From sequence record NC_104190.1: a stretch of 64,000 nt of DNA; one strand, written 5' to 3'. The notes under the pieces were generated by a model. It was not told where the DNA came from, searched no databases, and saw only the letters and a program-made list of their open reading frames with translations. Shown here in pieces: positions 1,325 to 53,430 of this stretch. Origin of the DNA: Escherichia phage IME178. How positions within the stretch are numbered: position 1 is the first letter of the stretch; every line of letters begins with the position of its first letter. The translations under genes were made by a program, and so were the position numbers.

Positions 1325-1714
1325 ATGGAACAAGTATACTGGCGTCAGATTGACCCTAGTTTGGTGAAGCGTGCGGAGAAGCTGCTACAACGTTGGTTGG
1401 GGGTAAGACAAGCCTCCTTCACTTTTCCTGAGCAGCAAACAGATGATCCCTGTATTGGTGTTTTCCTATCCGGCTACGCCGGGGAATGGGAGATGGACTG
1501 GAATGAATTGTCCGCTATGGGTTTAATTGTTGCCCTAAACTTCTCTATATTCCATCCACGTGGTTTGGCCATATGTCGTGTGCCTGATGACGGTTGTTCG
1601 CCCCATCTTTTACAGGTGGAAGATGATACTTGGGAGTATACTCCGGATATTCTTAAAGAAGCTAAAGAACAATTAAACCGTGTTGGGATCTATGTTCCGG
1701 GATTAAATGACTAA
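1325..1714 (+). CDS. hypothetical protein, tandem paralogue 2
   Basis: 129-aa ORF, paralogue of 899..1315; RBS GGAGG immediately upstream. Confidence 0.6.
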   Translation: MEQVYWRQIDPSLVKRAEKLLQRWLGVRQASFTFPEQQTDDPCIGVFLSGYAGEWEMDWNELSAMGLIVALNFSIFHPRGLAICRVPDDGCSPHLLQVEDDTWEYTPDILKEAKEQLNRVGIYVPGLND

Positions 1715-1808
1715 TGATTTTTATTAGCTGAACTATGATTACCGAGTCATTTTGGCTCGGTTTTATCCGTACTCAAGACCAATGATAGCACCATCCGGAA
1801 AATTTTAC

Positions 1809-1837
1809 TTGCAGGATGCCCAAAATCTTGATATAAT
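1809..1837 (+). promoter_or_regulatory. sigma70-type early promoter (TTGCAG, 17-bp spacer, TATAAT) with conserved downstream ATTGAATTGAGAGA
   Basis: Member of a repeated promoter family in this window; sits about 500 bp upstream of the likely start of the 2338..5127 gene. Confidence 0.4.
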
Positions 1838-2337
1838 ATTTATATTGAATTGAGAGACATTAGTAAAAATTGATTTTGCTAATTTTTCTTGTTTACAATC
1901 CGCGATACGGAACAGTTAGGCTGCCCCATTAAGGGTTGTTTTAACTGTTACATGTTAGTTTTTAAACAAATAGTTAATAGAATACTTAGCGATCTGCGCC
2001 CCATAGGAACCCTGGTAAGGCCTCGAAGCAACCTAGTATGAGGTGGTTGTGAAGTGAGATGGGAGGAGTGAAAAACTACCGAGACGTGATTCTGTAAGTT
2101 ATATTGCATCTAGTATGAGCTAGTATATGAAGCATTAGGTGAGCAAATCTGGCTTAGCGGCCATCCTCAAGGATTTGTGCGATATAGCAAAGCAGCAGCG
2201 CAGCGTGAAAGTGGAAGTTGCCACCCCACTTCAGTATTTGCGATTAATTTGTTGAGAAATTGACAGTAACAGTTGTTCTATTCTTTCTGAATAGTCCTAA
2301 AGAAAATTTATTTCATTTCCAACACAGGAGTATTGTT

Positions 2338-5127
2338 GTGTTCTCAATCCTACAAGGTCATGCAGGATTTCATCGCGATTTAGCCACAGGCAATTGGCGA
2401 GAAGTTAAAGCAGAAGATTATCTTTTTGCTAAAAGATTTTCCTCAAAGCATCCTGAAGGTAAACCAGCTTCAATGCCCTTCAAGTTTGATGTAATTGATG
2501 AAGTTGATCCTCAAACCCTAGTAGAAATGCTTCCTCTTATGAGACGTTTAACGTCTGACCCTCATATCGTTGCGGTACGAGGTAGATGTCTTGCACCTAA
2601 AAATAATGTGCGACGTAAGAAGGGCAACTTTAATGTATCTAACCCAAGTCATATAATTGCAATGGACGTGGATGGTATTGTGGATACAGGTGGTTGTAAC
2701 AAGTTTGATCTTGTTGGCATGGCTCGACATATTATTAGAATGTTAAATAGTATTAGTGAGGATATGTTTCCTCTTGATGCAGGGTTTATCGCTCATGCAT
2801 CGTCTTCGGCTGGGCTAAAACCAGGTATCCGAATGCACTTAATACTAGAATCTAATGTTAAAGTAACTCAGGGTCAAATCAAATTCTTATTTACATCTAT
2901 CAATGAAAGTAGTAGACAAAAGTATGGCTTTGATATTGCCGACTTAGCTTATTACTCTTCCGTACAGCTCCATTATTTTGCAGATCCGTTATTTACCGAT
3001 GGTATAGTAGATCCGTTTAAAGCGGAGGGTGCTTCACGTCTGGTATTTGTTAAAGGTTCTAAAGTAAATTTACCAAATAATCTGGTTGACTATGAAACAA
3101 CTAGAGGTGAGTTTAAGGAGGAGTTTTACTCTTTACTCGATCAAATTAAAGGTAAAAAAGCTGCCTCTGATAAAGTAGAGGAAACTATCAGCGAACTAGA
3201 AGAAGCTGAGGATGGGGTGTACTTGCGTATTATCCCCAAACTATACCATAGAGCATTAGAGGATGGTGTTGATTTTGCATGGCTAGAAAAAGAAATCCGT
3301 CCAGCCTTATCAGAATATATCGCAACTAAAGATAACAGTCGTAATATTCAAGATTACTTTAATAACGGTCGTAAACAGGCTCTGAAAGCATTTGTTAATA
3401 ATTCTAAACGCGATATACCTGATGTTTTAAAAGGTATTCCACTTAAAAAGCTAGAAACTAACTCCCTAGAAACTGATAACTTCTTGAAATTAAATACTGT
3501 GCCACCAGAAGGTTATATGACTTTTGTAAAAGCAAGTCTAGGTACAGGTAAAACCACGGCGGTTGTGCGTTGGTTAGATTCAGGAGTTATTAAAGGTAAT
3601 TTCTTAGCAATTACCAATACTAGAGCGCTGGTGTCTTCAAATGCTAAGAAATTCAGTGCAGGACAATATGATAAGTCTGTAGATATGCTTAATTTTAAGC
3701 GTGGTGCTATTGACCGTATGTCCACAACTATTCACTCTTTGCATAAGTTCAAGAGTTTTATTGGTCAAATTGATGCAATCTTTATCGATGAATGTGATGC
3801 TGTAATGAATGACCTGTTATTCGCCCCGGTTGTTAAACAACGTCGTGAGTGTATTCAGGTTCTTCGGGATATTCTTGCAACTGCAAAAATCATTATATTA
3901 TCAGATGGTGATATTAGTGCAGAAACAATTGAAGCATATGGTTCCTTGATTGAGTTTGATAAACCGGTTGCATTTTATAATCACCACCGTAAGATGTTGT
4001 CAAAAGCTCATGCTTATGAGTTCCCTGATGAATCCAGTATTTGGGTTGCACTTCAGACTTCTCTAGAGATGGGTGAGAAATCTATTCTGGTATCTGACTG
4101 TGGCCCTGATGAGCTGAATGAGAAGGGCATGGCATTACGTCGTAATACGGGTGCGTTAGTTAAGGAAATCCACTCAAACTCTACGTCTGATGTAGATATT
4201 CGACGTATTCTGGATTACACAACTAATGAGCTAATTGACCAACAAATTGATTGCTTATTATGTAGTCCATCCGTAACTAGTGGTGTTGACTTCAACTATT
4301 TTGATAACGTATTCGTTATTACTAGAACCAGCAACCAAGCGCCAAACATGCGTTTCCAAGCAATCAGGCGCGACCGTGGTGCTCAGAACATCTATTATTT
4401 TATTGATAAATCTACGAGTGGATTCTCCGCAGGTTCTGAACAATATAACATTGATGAAGGTTGGCTGGAGTTAGCACAGCAATTATACGCACGTCGCAGG
4501 GAGCTGGAATCTAGGAACTATACTAGTACTTTACGTTATTACTTGCTTGATCAGGGTGCAACTATTGATATTTTCAGTGAAAGCTGGGGAACTATCGAAG
4601 GTGCAGGCAAAGAGTATACAGAAGAGCGAATCAAAGCCATTTTGTATTCAACTCCTGATTATTGCGCTCCACGTCATGCGGATGCGTATGAAGCTAAACT
4701 ACTTCTTGTTCGCTACTATCATCTTGAGTCTATTAAAGATGTAACAGTTGAGCATGTTGAACAATATATCAAGGATAAACCGAATGATCGAGCTGCATTC
4801 TTCCATAAAATGCACGAGATGTTCTGGGAAGATATTAAGAAGTGTTCAAACGTCACTATCAAACCATTCATAGAAGCTCTGAAAGGTAAGAAGAAAGATT
4901 TCTTCCTTAAAACAGGTCAGAGTGCTAACCCAAAATATGCGAGAATGTATCTTGGTATGATGGGTATTGGTAAGGATATGAACACTGAAAATATTGTAGA
5001 CTGGTACAGAACCTATTGTAAAATCGAGTGTATGCCAATCCCATATAAGTTTATGACTGATGAGGAGAAACATATGCATGATGAAGCAATGGCAGAGCTA
5101 GGTGCTAGAAATGACAGTGAAGAATAA
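2338..5127 (+). CDS. putative primase-helicase: AEP-like primase domain fused to P-loop NTPase
   Basis: Long ORF (track 2260..5127); likely start GTG 2338 after RBS AGGAG. N-terminal IIAMDVDGI and GIRMHLIL resemble AEP primase motifs I/II; Walker A GTGKT and Walker B IFIDECD follow. Confidence 0.65.
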   Translation: MFSILQGHAGFHRDLATGNWREVKAEDYLFAKRFSSKHPEGKPASMPFKFDVIDEVDPQTLVEMLPLMRRLTSDPHIVAVRGRCLAPKNNVRRKKGNFNVSNPSHIIAMDVDGIVDTGGCNKFDLVGMARHIIRMLNSISEDMFPLDAGFIAHASSSAGLKPGIRMHLILESNVKVTQGQIKFLFTSINESSRQKYGFDIADLAYYSSVQLHYFADPLFTDGIVDPFKAEGASRLVFVKGSKVNLPNNLVDYETTRGEFKEEFYSLLDQIKGKKAASDKVEETISELEEAEDGVYLRIIPKLYHRALEDGVDFAWLEKEIRPALSEYIATKDNSRNIQDYFNNGRKQALKAFVNNSKRDIPDVLKGIPLKKLETNSLETDNFLKLNTVPPEGYMTFVKASLGTGKTTAVVRWLDSGVIKGNFLAITNTRALVSSNAKKFSAGQYDKSVDMLNFKRGAIDRMSTTIHSLHKFKSFIGQIDAIFIDECDAVMNDLLFAPVVKQRRECIQVLRDILATAKIIILSDGDISAETIEAYGSLIEFDKPVAFYNHHRKMLSKAHAYEFPDESSIWVALQTSLEMGEKSILVSDCGPDELNEKGMALRRNTGALVKEIHSNSTSDVDIRRILDYTTNELIDQQIDCLLCSPSVTSGVDFNYFDNVFVITRTSNQAPNMRFQAIRRDRGAQNIYYFIDKSTSGFSAGSEQYNIDEGWLELAQQLYARRRELESRNYTSTLRYYLLDQGATIDIFSESWGTIEGAGKEYTEERIKAILYSTPDYCAPRHADAYEAKLLLVRYYHLESIKDVTVEHVEQYIKDKPNDRAAFFHKMHEMFWEDIKKCSNVTIKPFIEALKGKKKDFFLKTGQSANPKYARMYLGMMGIGKDMNTENIVDWYRTYCKIECMPIPYKFMTDEEKHMHDEAMAELGARNDSEE

Positions 5128-5352: not shown

Positions 5353-5381
5353 TTGCATAGTGCAAAAAATTTCTGTATAAT
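5353..5381 (+). promoter_or_regulatory. sigma70-type early promoter (TTGCAT-17-TATAAT) with conserved ATAAATTTGAGAGAGGAG leader
   Basis: Leader/RBS runs directly into the ATG at 5413. Confidence 0.5.
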
Positions 5382-5412
5382 AGATTCATAAATTTGAGAG
5401 AGGAGTTTAAAT

Positions 5413-6393: not shown

Positions 6394-6422
6394 TTGCTTA
6401 ATCCTATAATTCTTGATATAAT
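6394..6422 (+). promoter_or_regulatory. sigma70-type early promoter (TTGCTT-17-TATAAT)
   Basis: Same family; upstream of the gene at 6480. Confidence 0.45.
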
Positions 6423-45657: not shown

Positions 45658-46871
45658 TCTTTATCTCCCTCGGTGGAACCTTGAGGTCTACCACCTTCTT
45701 GACCGGATACGCCTGTTGCAGAACCAGCGACGTTAGCAGGAATACGAATCTTATTCATCTGCTCATCATCTAAAGGCTCAAGGTTCAGCTCTAAACGAGC
45801 TTCGTTACCAGTTATAATACCATTATTAACCAATGAGGTTAAATGTTTAGCCTCAGATTCTTTATCTGGTGTTAATGCAGCTACTTCCTTAGTATTAGGA
45901 GTAATCTTATAACCAAAAAAGAAAGTAAGAGAACTAGTCAGCTTGTTCAGCATAGGGATGATAGTCATGTAATAGAACAGTTCGATGTTTGGTCGAATGT
46001 TCGCGTTATTACCACCATCAAGTAGCACTTGCGGAACACCAAAGGCTAGACAGATAGATTTATTAAATCCTTCGATGTCTTCCTTAAAGTCTAGATCTTT
46101 AAAAGAGGATATTTGGGAGTACGGTTTAGCTTTCATACCACCATCTAGAATCAGGACAGAAGACTGACCCGTACTAGGATTATAATCGAGTTGTAATTCT
46201 TCTTGTTTACGCTCACGCAATTTCTTGTTCAGAATTTCATCCGTCTCAAGAATAAGACCAATCACGGTTCCGTTATCGAGAAACTTCTCTTTAAAGTTAA
46301 GCATCTTGGAACGCTTCTCAAGAGAATCAATAACAGTAGCAACACGAGATTGTCCAGAAATTTGAGAATTTGTGCCACACACGTAACTGTTATCCTTTAT
46401 AAAGATAATCTCATCTACGCGATAGTCTATCTGGTTATTAAATATAAATTTTTTGATAAACTTATTGGCATCTGCCTCTACTTGCATTAGTGCAGCAGGG
46501 ACATGATAAAGTGCTGTGCCATCCCAATAGATGTATGCACAACCTTCAAAAAGTAGGTCAGTGACTACAAGTCTACGGAATGTGCTTATATCCATGAATG
46601 GATTAGGTCGTACATTTAAGAGAGTGTCTAGAGTCTTTGCCTTGATGCCATTGGCATACGTGACAATATTATATTTATCTCCGACAGTATAAGAACACTC
46701 CGCCGCACTATCTATAACCATATTAGCAGTTCTATTGAGAATCTCAATTTTACTGTAGGCTTGTCCAGTGGTAAAAGGCTTACGGTTAGTGCGATGACTA
46801 ACTGGTTCCATGTCTCTTATAATACGTTGACCCGGATTTAGCTTTTCAGTAATCCAGCTTTTAAAACCCAT
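45654..46871 (-). CDS. portal protein
   Basis: 405-aa ORF between terminase and protease genes; acidic C-terminus. Confidence 0.75.
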   Translation of the reverse strand: MGFKSWITEKLNPGQRIIRDMEPVSHRTNRKPFTTGQAYSKIEILNRTANMVIDSAAECSYTVGDKYNIVTYANGIKAKTLDTLLNVRPNPFMDISTFRRLVVTDLLFEGCAYIYWDGTALYHVPAALMQVEADANKFIKKFIFNNQIDYRVDEIIFIKDNSYVCGTNSQISGQSRVATVIDSLEKRSKMLNFKEKFLDNGTVIGLILETDEILNKKLRERKQEELQLDYNPSTGQSSVLILDGGMKAKPYSQISSFKDLDFKEDIEGFNKSICLAFGVPQVLLDGGNNANIRPNIELFYYMTIIPMLNKLTSSLTFFFGYKITPNTKEVAALTPDKESEAKHLTSLVNNGIITGNEARLELNLEPLDDEQMNKIRIPANVAGSATGVSGQEGGRPQGSTEGDKE

Positions 46872-47308
46872 TATAAGAACCTTGCGAATCCTGATTTTGT
46901 TTCAGTCTTGACTTGTGTCTTTTCTTGAGGATTCTGTAATTTGTCTTTCTGCTTTTGAACCCACACTTTTTGCTTATTAGCAGAAAATAAAGGAGGTTCT
47001 TTTGTGTAAACCTTATGTAATAATTGGTGATGGTGTACACAAAGGGTAACAGTGTCTTCTACTAGCTCATGCCTATATCGATCATAGAATGCCGTCCTAT
47101 TTGAAAGGACTATTTCTTCGTCAGTGAAATCCAATTGGAGTTCTTTAGCAAATTTTTTAACTAGTAGAGACACCGTATGGTAATGATGAAGCTCTAATTC
47201 TTCAGCACAACCGCAGATAGCACATTGAGAGTCTTTTTTATATTGACTTTTTATTCCGTCTCTCATAAGGGATATAGCATCGCGTTTATATTTTATATTG
47301 CTTGCCAT
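46871..47308 (-). CDS. HNH endonuclease-like zinc-binding protein
   Basis: CAICGC...HHYH...CVHHHQLLH motifs; ATG at 47308 follows RBS GAGGAG (track ORF 46871..47395). Confidence 0.6.
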   Translation of the reverse strand: MASNIKYKRDAISLMRDGIKSQYKKDSQCAICGCAEELELHHYHTVSLLVKKFAKELQLDFTDEEIVLSNRTAFYDRYRHELVEDTVTLCVHHHQLLHKVYTKEPPLFSANKQKVWVQKQKDKLQNPQEKTQVKTETKSGFARFL

Positions 47309-47422
47309 AGTGTTCTCCTCAACTGTATGAATATAGTATACATAATCGTATCGAATTTGTAAAGGGGATTTTAAAATGCAGGAATGGGATACCAACTGAG
47401 TAGTATCCCTTCCTATACTTAT

Positions 47423-48739
47423 TTATTTACCACGGGAAATAGAGTAAATTCCATAGCGCAGAGCATCACAGAGGTGAGAGTTAGCATCATGACGTGGTTT
47501 TTCACGTGATAATTTTTCTTCACCTTCTTGGAAATCCCACTTGTAATTCTGCAATGCGTGAATTAATGAGGAACATGAAGCATCCACAATAATCTTGCCT
47601 TGTTGGAATAGTGCTTGCAAGCATGCTAGACCATCTAGGACAGATTTTTTAGCTGGAGCTGATGCAATTTCATGTTCATAAGCTAAGTCCTGACGGAACT
47701 GAGCTGCTGCAGAGTCAACAAAAATACGATCAACTTTATAACGATCTATACAGTGCTGAATATACGCAGCATGTTGCGCTGTAGTTTTCTCCGCCTGCTG
47801 GTACTCTTCTAATACATAGTAAGTATCTGTATCATAGTGGTACTTAATAGTAAGAACTGCTGTAGGATCACGATAACCAACGTCAATACCAAGCAACGTT
47901 TCGAATGCTTCATCATCTTTAAAGAAGTGACGCATACCTTTGAGATCTTTAACATGGTCGATGGCATTAAAGGTATCGAAGATCTGACCTTCGAATACAG
48001 AAAAGTCAGCCTCATATTCCTGGCGGAAGTAGTTTTTACTAACTGTGCGACGTGCTTCTTCGATATCATTCAGATCAGCACGTGGGTTATCACGATATGT
48101 ACCATGAATAGATACCCAGTTAGGTAATGTATCATCAAATCCATAGGCGTAAAACTCTTTAAACCAGTTACCCCCACGAGGAGTGGAAATAAATAGAGCC
48201 TTAGAATTAGGCTTATCTAGAGTAGGACGCAACTGAACTCTAAAGGCATCACCACCCACATCTGAAATTGCCGCCTCATCGAATATGATAAAGTCATATG
48301 AACGTCCAACTGCGGAGTCAGCCTGCGCCGCAGAAGCTAGTTTAAACAGAGAACCATTAGCCAACTCTATTTCTTTATCTTTAGCGTTTTCACGTTCAGT
48401 TTGTAGGCCATACTTCTTAATAAGACCACGAATCTGAGACCATCCAATGTTGGCCAGTGAGTAGTTAGGAGCAACTACTAGCACCTTTACGTTAGGCTCC
48501 AGCAATTTTAGGAATCCAAGTGTATATGCTATAAAGGATTTGCCTACACGGCGTGACACACACGCCGTTACAAAACGATGTCTAGGGTCCTCTAAAGCAT
48601 TGATGATTGCTATTTGAGGACCATTAGGTGTAATACCTTCTTGTGCTAGTATTCCTGAAACAGGTAGACGAAAGAAACGTTTATCTATCCCGAAATCAAT
48701 AACATCTACTGTGTTAACGTAGGGTCTTGATACTTCCAT
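47423..48739 (-). CDS. terminase large subunit
   Basis: 438 aa (the length of T5 TerL); Walker A-like VSRRVGKS, Walker B IIFDEAA, C-terminal nuclease-like region. Confidence 0.85.
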   Translation of the reverse strand: MEVSRPYVNTVDVIDFGIDKRFFRLPVSGILAQEGITPNGPQIAIINALEDPRHRFVTACVSRRVGKSFIAYTLGFLKLLEPNVKVLVVAPNYSLANIGWSQIRGLIKKYGLQTERENAKDKEIELANGSLFKLASAAQADSAVGRSYDFIIFDEAAISDVGGDAFRVQLRPTLDKPNSKALFISTPRGGNWFKEFYAYGFDDTLPNWVSIHGTYRDNPRADLNDIEEARRTVSKNYFRQEYEADFSVFEGQIFDTFNAIDHVKDLKGMRHFFKDDEAFETLLGIDVGYRDPTAVLTIKYHYDTDTYYVLEEYQQAEKTTAQHAAYIQHCIDRYKVDRIFVDSAAAQFRQDLAYEHEIASAPAKKSVLDGLACLQALFQQGKIIVDASCSSLIHALQNYKWDFQEGEEKLSREKPRHDANSHLCDALRYGIYSISRGK

Positions 48740-49221
48740 TACTTCTTACCTCCAGTAGCTAGGGAAGTAATTAAGTCCATGTAGTTTTGATCCCCAGCTC
48801 CAGCAATAATATTATTCTGGATATTGGTCTGGTTAGCTGGAGTACGGGCTGCTGCCTTCACTTTCTCCAATTCTACCATCATTTTCATTTCTTCCATCTT
48901 CATCTTGTGTGCCTTCCAGAGAATGTCCATAATATCCTGGTCAGAACCCATGCCGGTTTCTTCTAGTTCCTCTAGTTTACGCTTAATAACTTCATCTAGA
49001 ACACCAAACAAACGATCTCTGTTACGGAATCCACTTTCCATAAAAATATCGTTTAAGTAGTTCTTAACTTCGCTACGATTCATAATATCTCGGAAAGCAA
49101 TTTCGGACATTCCAAGACTACGTGCGGCAGAAGGCACATCACTCCCGCACTGTAAATAAGCTTCAATCACATCCATCCCTTCAGGGGACATAAGATCTGG
49201 TACTAATACATCATTTGCCAT
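48739..49221 (-). CDS. putative terminase small subunit / DNA-binding protein
   Basis: 160 aa with N-terminal HTH-like segment ([22 protein letters not shown]); directly upstream of TerL with start/stop overlap. Confidence 0.45.
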
Positions 49222-49231
49222 ATTTCCTCCT

Positions 49232-50989
49232 TTAGGTAAGGCGTTGAACTGTTACTCTTAATCTAGGTAGGAAAACTGCACTACCTAAACTTACGTGCAT
49301 AACTACCCCTAACTCTACATTTCCGTTCCCCAGATTTTTAGCAGTGTATATAAAACTATTTCTACTTAGGGCATTGTTAGGTGTGTATCTAAAAGCAGAT
49401 GTAGTATGAAAAGGTACTAAATACCCTACTGGTAGTGTTAAAATCTGGTGGAATATCGCGTCTCCATTGCTATAACTATATGCTCTTCTTCCTTGCACTT
49501 GAAACACACCGTTATTCCATGTATTAGCAGGAACACCTGCACAGTTAAGATTACCTGATATAACTTCAGTGGTAAGAATTACTGTAGCATTGCCACCCGG
49601 TATACCTAGCCCAATAGTTGATAAACCAACGTATCTATCTCCTGTTCCCGGGTAGCTAGGAGTAATATCATCTCCCATATAAGAACTACCTACATTTCCA
49701 CCAAAAAGTCGTAATGGAACTGCTGAAGGCCCCCAAACAACCCCGTGTTCATTACCGATAGTATTATCATTAGAGTTTACGTACCATTGCTTACCAGCTC
49801 CGAATTTGTAAATACTAATTTGAGACTTAGCCCCTCCATAGTCTACAGGAGACCATAAACTCCCGTTACTAGAACCTACAAGTTCACACCTTGCAGTGGT
49901 ATCCCCAAAGGCCCCAGTGTACGCTGCATTATTTCCAATATATTCCATATCTGGTCTATAACCTAAGTTACCGAAAGCGTTCTGGTTAATAAACTTGTAT
50001 CCAGTATTGGGAAGACTAACCCCTTTAATTATGAAATTAGAAGGAGATATAAGAATATCTGAACCAGTAAAAGGATTACCAGAGATACTCATACCACCAT
50101 TTGAGTATCTTAAATTCAAAACGTACCAAATAACTTTAGTAGGGGTTATGTTATACCAATCCTGTAATATTGTAGCGTTACCAGATTGGTTAGCTAAATT
50201 AGTTGTAGAACCCCTACAAACAAATCTGTTACCTCCATCATGATACATAGTATTTACATTACCAGGAAGACCTTGTCTTACCCCACCATACCCACGTATG
50301 TTAGAGTTACAAACATAAAACCAATCGTGCCCTCTGTGTGCTGATCCTAAAGGAGACATCCATCCTGGGTCCCAGTAATATTGGTTATTACCATCTATAG
50401 GTACTGTACTACTATTAGTAGGGAATCCTAACTGTGCAAAAGCTTCTGCAACAGTAATACCTACTGGAGCTCCTGCACCTGGCCTAACTATACCATGATA
50501 CGTACTATGTAAGGTAGTACCCCCTGTACCATTCCTAGAAATAGATTCTTCATGTCCTATAGATGGATTATAGTTATATGTACCAGATGCCAGGCTATTA
50601 CCAAATGCAAATCCACTAGTCTGGGAAACACTAGCAAAAGATCTAAAAGGATCTGCTTGAGTGGCAACTATAGTTTGACCCACCTTACTCTGAGTACCAT
50701 TAAGAAAAGCCCTATGAGTACCATTTATCTCAATAGCAGTTAGTATAACTCTACCAGGATCGTTAGATTTAATATTTATTATGTCAGCGGGCATTTGACA
50801 TACAAAAAACCCATTACCGGCATCACCTAACCCAGACTCATAAGTACCATCAACTAGGACAAATGGCATGTCACTATGAAAAATACTATTGGCATTTGGA
50901 CTATAGTGACGATTAATGTCACCACCAGATTCAGTATTTAAAGATAGTACGGTCTTACCATCGCTATATTTTCCAGCGAAAAAACCCAT
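49232..50989 (-). CDS. receptor-binding tail protein (pb5-like)
   Basis: 585-aa Gly/Asn/Ser/Thr-rich protein encoded divergently from a lipoprotein gene, the arrangement known for T5 oad(pb5)/llp. Confidence 0.6.
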
Positions 50990-51014
50990 ATAATCTCCTA
51001 TTATAAAAATGTAT

Positions 51015-51043
51015 TTGCTTTCATCCCTCTATTTTGCTATAAT
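51015..51043 (+). promoter_or_regulatory. sigma70-type early promoter (TTGCTT-17-TATAAT) with conserved ATAAATTAGAAATGGAGAGA leader, driving llp
   Basis: Same promoter family as the replication genes, in the divergent pb5/llp intergenic region. Confidence 0.5.
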
Positions 51044-51074
51044 AGATTCATAAATTAGAAATGGAGAGATAAAT

Positions 51075-51341
51075 ATGAAAAAGTTTGTGATTGCACTAGT
51101 TGCCGCAGTTATGTTATCTGGTTGTGCACCTGCTCCCAAACCATTTTGTACTGGATTTGTAAAATCTTTTGGGGGTGCGGGAGAAGAACATTATGGCCTC
51201 AAGGTTCAAAAAGTTCGTATTAAGGGAGATCGCTTCCCAGTAGTACAACTCCGTACTAAATTTGGGTGGTGGGATCTCAGTCAGTTTGACCTTAAATATG
51301 GTGATTGTAAATTTAAACTAGAGCAATCTAACTACCTGTAA
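51075..51341 (+). CDS. llp: Llp-like lytic-conversion lipoprotein
   Basis: 88 aa with signal peptide and lipobox LSGC; divergent from the receptor-binding gene. Confidence 0.65.
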   Translation: MKKFVIALVAAVMLSGCAPAPKPFCTGFVKSFGGAGEEHYGLKVQKVRIKGDRFPVVQLRTKFGWWDLSQFDLKYGDCKFKLEQSNYL

Positions 51342-51518
51342 TTAGTATAAAGCAAAAAGACATCTAAGTAAACTAAATTTTTTATTTTTTGGACGGTATA
51401 TTGGCAGAAACCACTATGTAAGAAAAGTAGAAGTCCTTCTAGGAAGTCACAAGCATGGTTGGTTGTGCACAAATTATAAAATAATTTAAAATACCACATT
51501 TATTGGAGCATGAAAGAT

Positions 51519-51647
51519 ATGTCAAATAAAAGAAAGAACAGGCGTGGAGAAGTTTACGAAGCGTGGATTAATATTTACGGATTTGGTTTTGTATTATTCC
51601 TAATCTTCGTAGGTTTTTGGTTAGCAGCTATGGCGGGGTGGATCTAA
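51519..51647 (+). CDS. small single-pass membrane protein (42 aa)
   Basis: MSNKRKNRRGEVYEAW then hydrophobic helix; below the ORF-track length cutoff. Confidence 0.4.
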   Translation: MSNKRKNRRGEVYEAWINIYGFGFVLFLIFVGFWLAAMAGWI

Positions 51648-51802
51648 TGGAATGGGTAATTATTGGCATATTCGTCTTATTGATACTTATCTTTGTAGGC
51701 TTACGTGTAATAGATACCTCTATAACCCAAACAGAGATTAAATTAATGCAGTTGAGCAATAGATTATCTAGAATTGAGACTTTATTAGAGGAGCGTAAAT
51801 AA
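51647..51802 (+). CDS. small membrane protein, MEWVII family member 1
   Basis: MEWVIIGIFVLLILIFVG...RIETLLEERK; ATG overlaps previous stop. Confidence 0.5.
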   Translation: MEWVIIGIFVLLILIFVGLRVIDTSITQTEIKLMQLSNRLSRIETLLEERK

Positions 51803-51909
51803 TGGAATGGGTAATTATTGCACTACTAGGGATTGTGATTATCGGGCAGTGTATTTTAGATAATCATCTAGCTAGAATTGAAACCTTATTATTGGAGAAA
51901 CGTAAATGA
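51802..51909 (+). CDS. small membrane protein, MEWVII family member 2 (35 aa)
   Basis: MEWVIIALLGIVIIGQ...RIETLLLEKRK; paralogue of the preceding ORF. Confidence 0.45.
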   Translation: MEWVIIALLGIVIIGQCILDNHLARIETLLLEKRK

Positions 51910-52695: not shown

Positions 52696-53430
52696 TTACG
52701 CAACTTTTAATTTCTCAATATATTGTTGCGGGCTGCAACTATATTCTGCGCGTTCTTCCTCGGTCATACCTTCCCAGCATAATTTCAAACGATCAGCTAG
52801 GAACTGATAATCATTATCATCGTCGAGAGATTCATCAATAAAGGTTTCACCTATCAATGCCACGCCGATTGATAGAATATCATTAACGGCTTGTGCGTCC
52901 AGCGTTTTAAATCCGTATGACGCTGCCGCTGATAACACGCCTTTATGATCATCAATCATTGTAAATTCAGCGTTCGGATATAACTGTTTAAATAACTCAA
53001 AATAATAAGATTTATATACTGCGTCTTTACTATGGTAAATTTCGCTAACCTTATCAGCTTTAAAATATTTATGCAGTGTATCACGGGAAAATACGCGAAT
53101 ATTGCTTTTATCACGACCGCGTAAACCTTGTTTGCGCAGGAAGTAATAATCTGATTTGCTCATTAGTCGAGCGGTACAAATAATGTTTAAAGTATTTGCG
53201 TCATTCATGCACTGGCGCATGTATTCAACTAATGGTAATAATGTATCTTGCATTATTAAATGATGTTTGCAGGCTTCATTTTTATATTTATTTAAATCTA
53301 AATTGCCCTCATTATCAAAGCAAGGCGCTACACGATGGAAAGAATTAACGATAGTGCCGTCTAAATCCCAAATCATAACGCGGGAAATATGCGGGAAGCT
53401 GCGGGAAATGTTCATAATAGCTTTATTCAT
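52696..53430 (-). CDS. dmp: 5'-deoxyribonucleotidase (dmp-like, HAD family)
   Basis: 244 aa with HAD motif I WDLDGT; same length as T5 Dmp; lies in the pre-early block. Confidence 0.7.
   Translation of the reverse strand: MNKAIMNISRSFPHISRVMIWDLDGTIVNSFHRVAPCFDNEGNLDLNKYKNEACKHHLIMQDTLLPLVEYMRQCMNDANTLNIICTARLMSKSDYYFLRKQGLRGRDKSNIRVFSRDTLHKYFKADKVSEIYHSKDAVYKSYYFELFKQLYPNAEFTMIDDHKGVLSAAASYGFKTLDAQAVNDILSIGVALIGETFIDESLDDDNDYQFLADRLKLCWEGMTEEERAEYSCSPQQYIEKLKVA

Follow-up and report, generated by a model that had tools for sequence, protein, structure and literature searches.

Which outer-membrane receptor is recognised by the 585-aa receptor-binding protein (RBP) of Escherichia phage IME178, and does the small lipoprotein encoded divergently beside it block that same receptor? 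The window, i.e. the whole stretch of 64,000 nucleotides analysed here (NC_104190.1), was examined around this gene pair. Very probably the pair serves a T5-like (Markadamsvirinae) phage as its BtuB-specific module for host recognition and lytic conversion, BtuB being the bacterial vitamin-B12 transporter. Our own results cover the anatomy of the genes, their homologies and identities, the family of the promoter and the boundaries of recombination; for BtuB dependence and Llp-mediated exclusion we draw on what others have shown with identical or near-identical proteins.

Locus layout and the divergent control region

The features of the locus are as follows.

47423-48739: terL, flanking the module on the same side as terS
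48739-49221, minus strand: terS, terminase small subunit (phrog_3802, E 6.5e-91), a conserved flank
49232-50989, minus strand: RBP gene (pb5/Oad/Hrs homologue), 585 aa, ATG start preceded by AGGAG
50990-51074, no strand: divergent intergenic control region, 85 bp between the RBP gene and llp
51015-51055, plus strand: llp promoter, early-type sigma-70 (TTGCTT, 17 nt, TGcTATAAT, then AGATTCATAAAT)
51075-51341, plus strand: llp, 88-aa lipoprotein precursor, ATG start preceded by GGAGAG

Both divergent open reading frames, of 585 and 88 aa, were found where a preliminary description of this DNA had placed them. Neither is a chance reading frame, since the RBP matches phrog_4815 ('receptor binding tail protein') with E 1.3e-274 over residues 1-585 and the full lipoprotein matches phrog_1119 ('Cor superinfection exclusion protein') with E 1.8e-26. 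The RBP gene is the first in the late oad-terS-terL transcription direction, while llp is followed by four ORFs for small membrane proteins and, after these, by a homologue of dmp. The same layout, with the RBP gene adjoining terS-terL and divergent from llp, is present in T5, BF23, DT57C and SPC35. Megablast of 48700-51900 matched 437 phage records, all of them T5-like (Markadamsvirinae); the best relatives were Salmonella phages PK7 and PK8 (97.2% identity), followed by SP01, ECOP18 and EC148. Base composition gave no foreign-DNA signature across the module.

Several observations concern the surroundings. Just past terL, the ORF at 46871-47395 (minus strand, 174 aa) matches phrog_3497, of unknown function, strongly and the HNH-endonuclease family phrog_8048 weakly (E 7.8e-6), and it contains CxxC...HH motifs. 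Its product is a putative homing or nicking endonuclease, and endonucleases are annotated at the matching position in T5 and BF23. Downstream of llp, a segment of about 200 bp (51623-51823) did not align to BF23, DT57C, SPC35, T5, Cit2 or SelmaRatti. The ORF at 51647-51802 (51 aa from the ATG) encodes a single transmembrane segment with a C-terminal extension and matches phrog_6369, which has 35 positions; it is thus a longer variant of a T5.160-like small membrane protein. It appears to be common to PK7, SP01 and ECOP18, whose matches span the whole query (100%), whereas the many records with 96% query cover in two pieces probably lack it. The dmp homologue (5'-deoxynucleotidase; 52696-53430, minus strand) has 'polynucleotide kinase' as its PHROG label. 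The right terminal repeat of BF23 has dmp as its first gene; the position of the homologue here therefore places the border between the late region and terminal-repeat/pre-early DNA inside the window, at about 52.4-52.6 kb.

The 85-bp intergenic region holds the Shine-Dalgarno sequences of both genes together with the llp promoter. The promoter core lies at 51015-51043 (TTGCTT, 17 nt, TATAAT, with TG at -15/-14), and the A/T-rich element upstream of it overlaps the ribosome-binding site of the RBP gene. The region is 94-100% conserved with BF23, DT57C and SPC35; the promoter is kept in these three phages and is recognisable in T5. Divergent promoters are annotated at the matching intergenic position in the T5 and BF23 records. 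Within the window, 14 copies of the core TTGCT-N18-TATAAT were counted where 4.0 ± 2.0 would be expected, with exact copies at 6394, 7610, 8786 and 13180 (all on the plus strand) in addition to that at 51015. The full 41-nt pattern recurs just once elsewhere in the window (at 5353; 0 expected). These statistics bear out the earlier proposal that llp is driven by an early-family promoter: the motif is present and belongs to an over-represented family clustered in replication genes. Genes of the early class, for helicase, ligases, primase, D5 regulator and polymerase, are found between 1.5 and 14 kb. In T5, llp was shown to be expressed early (Decker 1994, as reported in a citing paper), and by analogy early expression would be expected for llp here.

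Plus-strand members of the TTGCT-N18-TATAAT family stand in the early replication cluster at 1809, 5353, 6394, 7610, 8786 and 13180. The copy at 5353-5393 has the whole TATAATAGATTCATAAAT box in common with the llp promoter, and it resembles the classic T5 P_N25 promoter. The llp promoter escaped a generic promoter and terminator scan, its -35 hexamer TTGCTT scoring only 3/6, and the scan found no terminator after llp; the promoter call is based on motif-family statistics and conservation across phages.

The receptor-binding protein and its probable receptor

Homology places the RBP among the pb5/Oad/Hrs homologues of the BtuB-binding clade, in the subtype of AKFV33 and T5_ev212. A PDB sequence search retrieved the T5 pb5 structures 8b14_B and 8a8c_B with E 1.8e-50, while no model matching the RBP was found in Pfam or NCBIfam. 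In MAFFT alignments, the identity was 68.5% with BF23 Hrs (595 aa), 73.7% with the RBP of DT57C (586 aa), 73.3% with that of SPC35 (595 aa) and 34% with T5 pb5 (640 aa). Similar values were obtained by tblastn: 73.5% for DT571/2, about 72% for SPC35, 67-70% for the large Epseptimavirus class, 55.8% for Yersinia phage phiR2-01, 30% for T5, and 27-29% for the Klebsiella and S124 types (27.5% for the FepA-type S124). The RBP thus clusters with the BtuB binders, at 56-74% identity, versus 27-34% to the T5 (FhuA) and S124 (FepA) types.

Within this clade, AKFV33 provided the first description of the 585-aa form (2012). About 100 GenBank phage records carry it at ≥95% identity, AKFV33, chee24, L6jm, OSYSP-like, Cit2 and JLBYU40 among them, and by tblastn it is 100% identical in Salmonella phage PK7. 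The RBP of Escherichia phage T5_ev212 (LR597659) is identical at 579 of 585 residues (99%), and the Llp of that phage is identical to the one encoded here. In many of the roughly 100 records, both the RBP and llp are labelled 'hypothetical protein'.

BF23, DT57C, DT571/2, SPC35, EPS7 and phiR2-01 all use BtuB, and the BASEL collection showed that T5-like RBPs form three clusters which predict BtuB, FepA or FhuA (PMC8594841). The closest evidence comes from RB-TnSeq data released in 2026 preprints. EV212 of the 255-phage study is T5_ev212 according to the supplement, with a matching genome length (108,546 bp), and in BW25113 btuB was its top hit with fitness of 14.7-14.8 in two replicates; btuB was the top hit in the O157:H7 libraries too. 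In the same 255-phage study, the RBP of the 23 BtuB-binding Demerecviridae is stated to share about 30% identity with pb5, and FhuA was used only by T5 and CEV2. That BtuB is also the receptor in IME178 is supported by the 99%-identical RBP of T5_ev212 and by relatives down to 56% identity. For the 585-aa subtype, no receptor test was found in the BASEL 2025 paper or in the JLBYU FhuA paper. SelmaRatti (Bas34 of BASEL) was considered as an experimental proxy and rejected, its RBP being of 595 aa and of the SPC35/BF23 type.

These data also settle how the RBP length should be read. The preliminary description had set 585 aa against the 640 aa of T5 pb5 and had taken the difference as a sign of an outer-membrane receptor other than FhuA. 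The lengths are right, and the departure from FhuA found support in the btuB dependence conferred with the 99%-identical RBP of T5_ev212, the receptor now being named as BtuB; near-identity to pb5 over the full length, which would have told against that view, was not found, the comparison giving 34%. Length itself, however, does not predict the receptor, because forms of 585, 586 and 595 aa all bind BtuB.

Where the length differences fall is informative. Among the four BtuB subtypes, residues 1-100 and 281-420 are conserved, while conservation is low at residues 101-120, 161-220, 241-280, 481-500 and 521-540. Every indel with respect to BF23 and SPC35 comes after residue 115, 251, 536 or 539, the BF23 protein having insertions of 1, 3, 6 and 1 aa, and its divergent patches (about 101-120, 161-280 and 481-540) correspond to the predicted receptor-contact loops. 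The large insertions of T5 pb5 follow RBP residues 257, 266, 529 and 536. When the pb5 loops were mapped by alignment, which at about 30% identity is approximate, L1 (Gln115) fell at about residue 114, L2 (Phe170) at about 172 and L4 (570-590) at about 529-539. The conserved segments correspond to the apical, pb4-binding subdomain of pb5, as judged by alignment against structural descriptions. To this approximation, the subtype differences and all length differences appear to sit at positions homologous to the receptor-inserting loops of pb5, and the length difference flagged earlier would accordingly lie in the receptor-contact loops. According to published work, AF2 models of the distal half of pb5 and of Llp are unreliable.

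Could the subtype-specific loops direct the RBP to a different TonB-dependent transporter or to a porin (FepA, YncD or CirA, for example), leaving Llp as a relic? The RBP and BF23 Hrs differ by 31%, and the differences cluster in the loops predicted to contact the receptor; the AKFV33 authors left the receptor open. Nevertheless, the EV212 RB-TnSeq result names btuB, and BtuB is still used by DT57C, whose RBP is 71% identical to BF23 Hrs, and by phiR2-01, at 56% to the RBP of the window, while FepA-type RBPs are only about 27% identical. Moreover, the llp gene is kept at 99-100% identity beside the 585-aa RBP in about 100 genomes, which argues for a continued functional fit between the two proteins. 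We regard retargeting as very unlikely, and BtuB remains the preferred receptor.

A different assignment has been published for Citrobacter phage Cit2 (PMC12980165). Its RBP was reported to be 96.9% identical to T5 pb5 and to cluster with T5, and FhuA was inferred as the receptor. The Cit2 RBP (1658-3415 of the locus extracted from OP745948, L002) was compared with 49232-50989 of the window and is 97% identical to the RBP studied here, which would then bind FhuA as in T5, with the BF23-type Llp acting as a 'decoupled' exclusion protein against competitors. By direct comparison, however, the Cit2 RBP or that of the window is 34% identical to T5 pb5 (NC_005859), and the value of 96.9% was not reproduced. 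The 67-73% identity to S126, SPC35, BF23 and DT57C given in the Cit2 paper itself agrees with our values and is incompatible with 97% to pb5. Furthermore, T5_ev212, with its 99%-identical RBP, needs btuB, and fhuA is needed only by T5 and CEV2. The FhuA reading was rejected because both the 34% identity to pb5 and the 67-73% values clash with near-identity, and it retains hardly any credibility. Cit2 was probably mis-assigned to FhuA, and the published inference looks like a mix-up.

The lipoprotein and its probable target receptor

The preliminary description had also proposed that the 88-aa protein is a lipoprotein with lipobox LSGC and that it is an Llp; both proposals are confirmed. The N-terminus reads MKKFVIALVAAVMLSG and then C, and Pfam LPAM_1 scores 23.9 bits against a cutoff of 20. 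Residues 1-16 form the signal peptide, Cys17 is the predicted lipidated residue and the mature protein has 72 aa. The protein is identical to BF23 Llp at 88 of 88 residues and is identical also in SelmaRatti and Cit2, while it is one residue off the Llps of DT57C, SPC35 and JLBYU40. About 180 records carry it at ≥95% identity, against about 100 that carry the RBP at that level.

The function of this Llp type is known from two phages. BF23 Llp is a characterised BtuB blocker (Mondigler et al. 2006, as described in citing papers). Golomidova et al. (2016; PMC4728585) cloned llp of DT57C and observed that plating of BF23 and DT57C fell more than 100-fold while T5 plating was unaffected, and that btuB mutants were resistant. 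Both llp primers of that study have a site in the window, at 51063-51103 and 51504-51524, each with a single mismatch. Llp-mediated exclusion has thus been demonstrated for the BF23 and DT57C RBP subtypes. By its identity to BF23 Llp, the 88-aa product is assigned as a BF23-type Llp and would block BtuB.

The relationship to T5 Llp (77 aa) is much weaker. The identity is only 26-30%, and BLASTP of the two mature proteins is marginal (E 0.009). A PDB sequence search with Llp returned nothing meaningful, T5 Llp was undetectable by pairwise phmmer, and NCBIfam has no Llp model. Mature Llp matches phrog_1119 with E 2.6e-16 and mature T5 Llp with 1.4e-11, in a family that may hold both Llp types as members. 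As the pairwise searches are void or marginal, the relationship is read from the PHROG profile matches only, and we hold the kinship to a distant family relationship because the pairwise BLASTP is marginal and phrog_1119 may contain both types. Published accounts describe the Llps of T5 and BF23 as non-homologous (PMC4728585). The cysteines of the mature protein stand at positions 1, 9 and 62, parallel to 1, 11 and 58 of T5 Llp, in which Cys11 and Cys58 form a disulfide; by analogy, a Cys9-Cys62 disulfide may tie the termini of the present protein.

The best family match might be taken to mean that the ORF encodes a generic 'Cor' protein which blocks FhuA rather than BtuB, T5 Llp being labelled alike, but this is most improbable, as the label is family-level only, the identity to T5 Llp is low, the protein is identical to BF23 Llp, and the DT57C variant differing by one residue spared T5 (FhuA) and excluded BtuB phages (PMC4728585). 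'Cor superinfection exclusion protein' is applied in RefSeq and PHROG both to the FhuA-blocking T5 Llp (gene at 2188-2421 of the extracted T5 locus) and to the BtuB-blocking BF23-type Llp; as a family-level label, it is silent on which receptor is blocked.

Exchange units, mechanism and meaning

100-bp DNA identity profiles against comparators including T5, BF23, DT57C and SPC35 revealed how the module has moved. The terL and terS genes are 88-100% identical to all comparators including T5 (95-99% for terS), and identity falls sharply at the RBP stop codon, the drop in the profile standing at 49223; the left recombination boundary lies between the terS start and the RBP stop codon. Relative to T5, DNA identity is 25-62% across the RBP gene and llp and recovers at about 51420-51520. 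Relative to BF23 and DT57C, it recovers to 86-98% already at about 50920-51020, the intergenic region and llp being 94-98% identical. Relative to SPC35, high identity (93-100%) extends further, over the first 270 nt or so of the RBP gene. Two nested exchange units emerge: the RBP gene plus llp, which distinguishes the FhuA from the BtuB class, and the RBP body, which distinguishes the BtuB subtypes. The larger number of records with a near-identical Llp than with a near-identical RBP agrees with this nesting. The same modular exchange was proposed for DT57C by Golomidova et al. (PMC4728585), and BF23 Hrs is reported to replace T5 pb5 functionally (Krauel and Heller 1991, as cited in PMC10644984). 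The pair had been described earlier as a natural swap cassette for host range. Exchange of the pair is indeed evident from the identity profiles and from the replacement of pb5 by Hrs, but the cassette is not a single unit, because the RBP body also recombines independently of llp.

Several characterised systems can be compared with the module. The hrs-llp pair of BF23 (Mondigler et al. 2006; OR083247) has the same position, the same divergence and the BtuB receptor, with an identical Llp, and differs in its Hrs. The pair of DT57C and DT571/2 (Golomidova et al. 2016) has a 586-aa RBP, uses BtuB and encodes an Llp with one different residue; set against BF23, DT57C and the window are both mosaics whose junction separates the hrs body from llp, and the RBP of DT57C represents a different mosaic subtype. 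In AKFV33, T5_ev212, Cit2, JLBYU40 and PK7 the RBP is 95-100% identical over the full 585 aa and is accompanied by the same Llp; with essentially no difference from these, the window is another member of the group of about 100 phages with the 585-aa form. The oad (pb5)-llp pair of T5 (Decker 1994; PDB 8a8c, 8b14 and the FhuA-Llp structure) has the same architecture, flanks and promoter layout, an RBP of homologous fold family and an Llp of the same Cor/Llp family with the conserved Cys pair, and serves as the mechanistic template. It differs in its FhuA receptor, in the 640-aa pb5 and in the 77-aa Llp, the whole RBP and llp block being replaced. The novelty implied by the preliminary description was consequently not borne out. 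The module is already known and was described from 2006 to 2016; both exact proteins are in GenBank at 100%, and their function has been tested in near-identical phages. Nothing in the oad/hrs-llp module is new in concept: the module itself, its divergent early/late expression, its exchange in modular fashion and its specificity for BtuB had all been established before.

The following mechanism is proposed. The RBP would be monomeric and placed at the end of the central straight tail fibre, with its conserved N-terminus and apical half docking onto the pb4-like fibre, and would bind BtuB by loop insertion. Transcribed early from a strong host-sigma-70 promoter, llp would yield a protein that undergoes export, receives its lipid at Cys17 and ends up in the inner leaflet of the outer membrane; outer-membrane sorting is predicted by the Lol-avoidance rule from Ala at +2. 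Llp would then bind the periplasmic face and plug of BtuB, upon which the extracellular loops of BtuB would become unable to bind the RBP, in analogy to the 'reverse allostery' of T5 Llp and FhuA. Superinfecting BtuB-dependent phages would thereby be excluded, and progeny would be spared adsorption to debris. Among these steps, we infer lipoprotein sorting, periplasmic jamming of BtuB and the loop-insertion binding mode.

The model for the jamming step is T5. T5 Llp is a periplasmic outer-membrane lipoprotein whose binding partner is the FhuA plug in a non-native conformation, and its binding folds EL7 and EL8 of FhuA inward over the pb5 site. The authors of the FhuA-Llp study proposed a general way of jamming TonB-dependent transporters. 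The jamming mechanism has been solved for T5 Llp-FhuA only, and PDB searches retrieved no complex of BtuB with Llp or with Hrs. With T5 as the guide, the BF23-type Llp would be expected to jam BtuB from the periplasmic side. If jamming holds, one near-invariant Llp could serve at least four RBP subtypes because Llp would address the conserved periplasmic face of the receptor and the RBPs its variable extracellular face.

It is conceivable, though we consider it unlikely, that the RBP subtypes engage different sets of BtuB loops and that the 585-aa subtype partly escapes exclusion by the BF23-type Llp. Should this be true, the RBP subtypes would be the products of an arms race between phages over superinfection exclusion and not of variation in host BtuB. 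For the BtuB-specific module itself, the analysis allows confident BtuB annotation of the RBP of this phage and of about 100 near-identical RBPs, many of them in records with 'hypothetical protein' or the misleading 'Cor' as label, which is useful for phage cocktails that avoid cross-resistance through a shared receptor.
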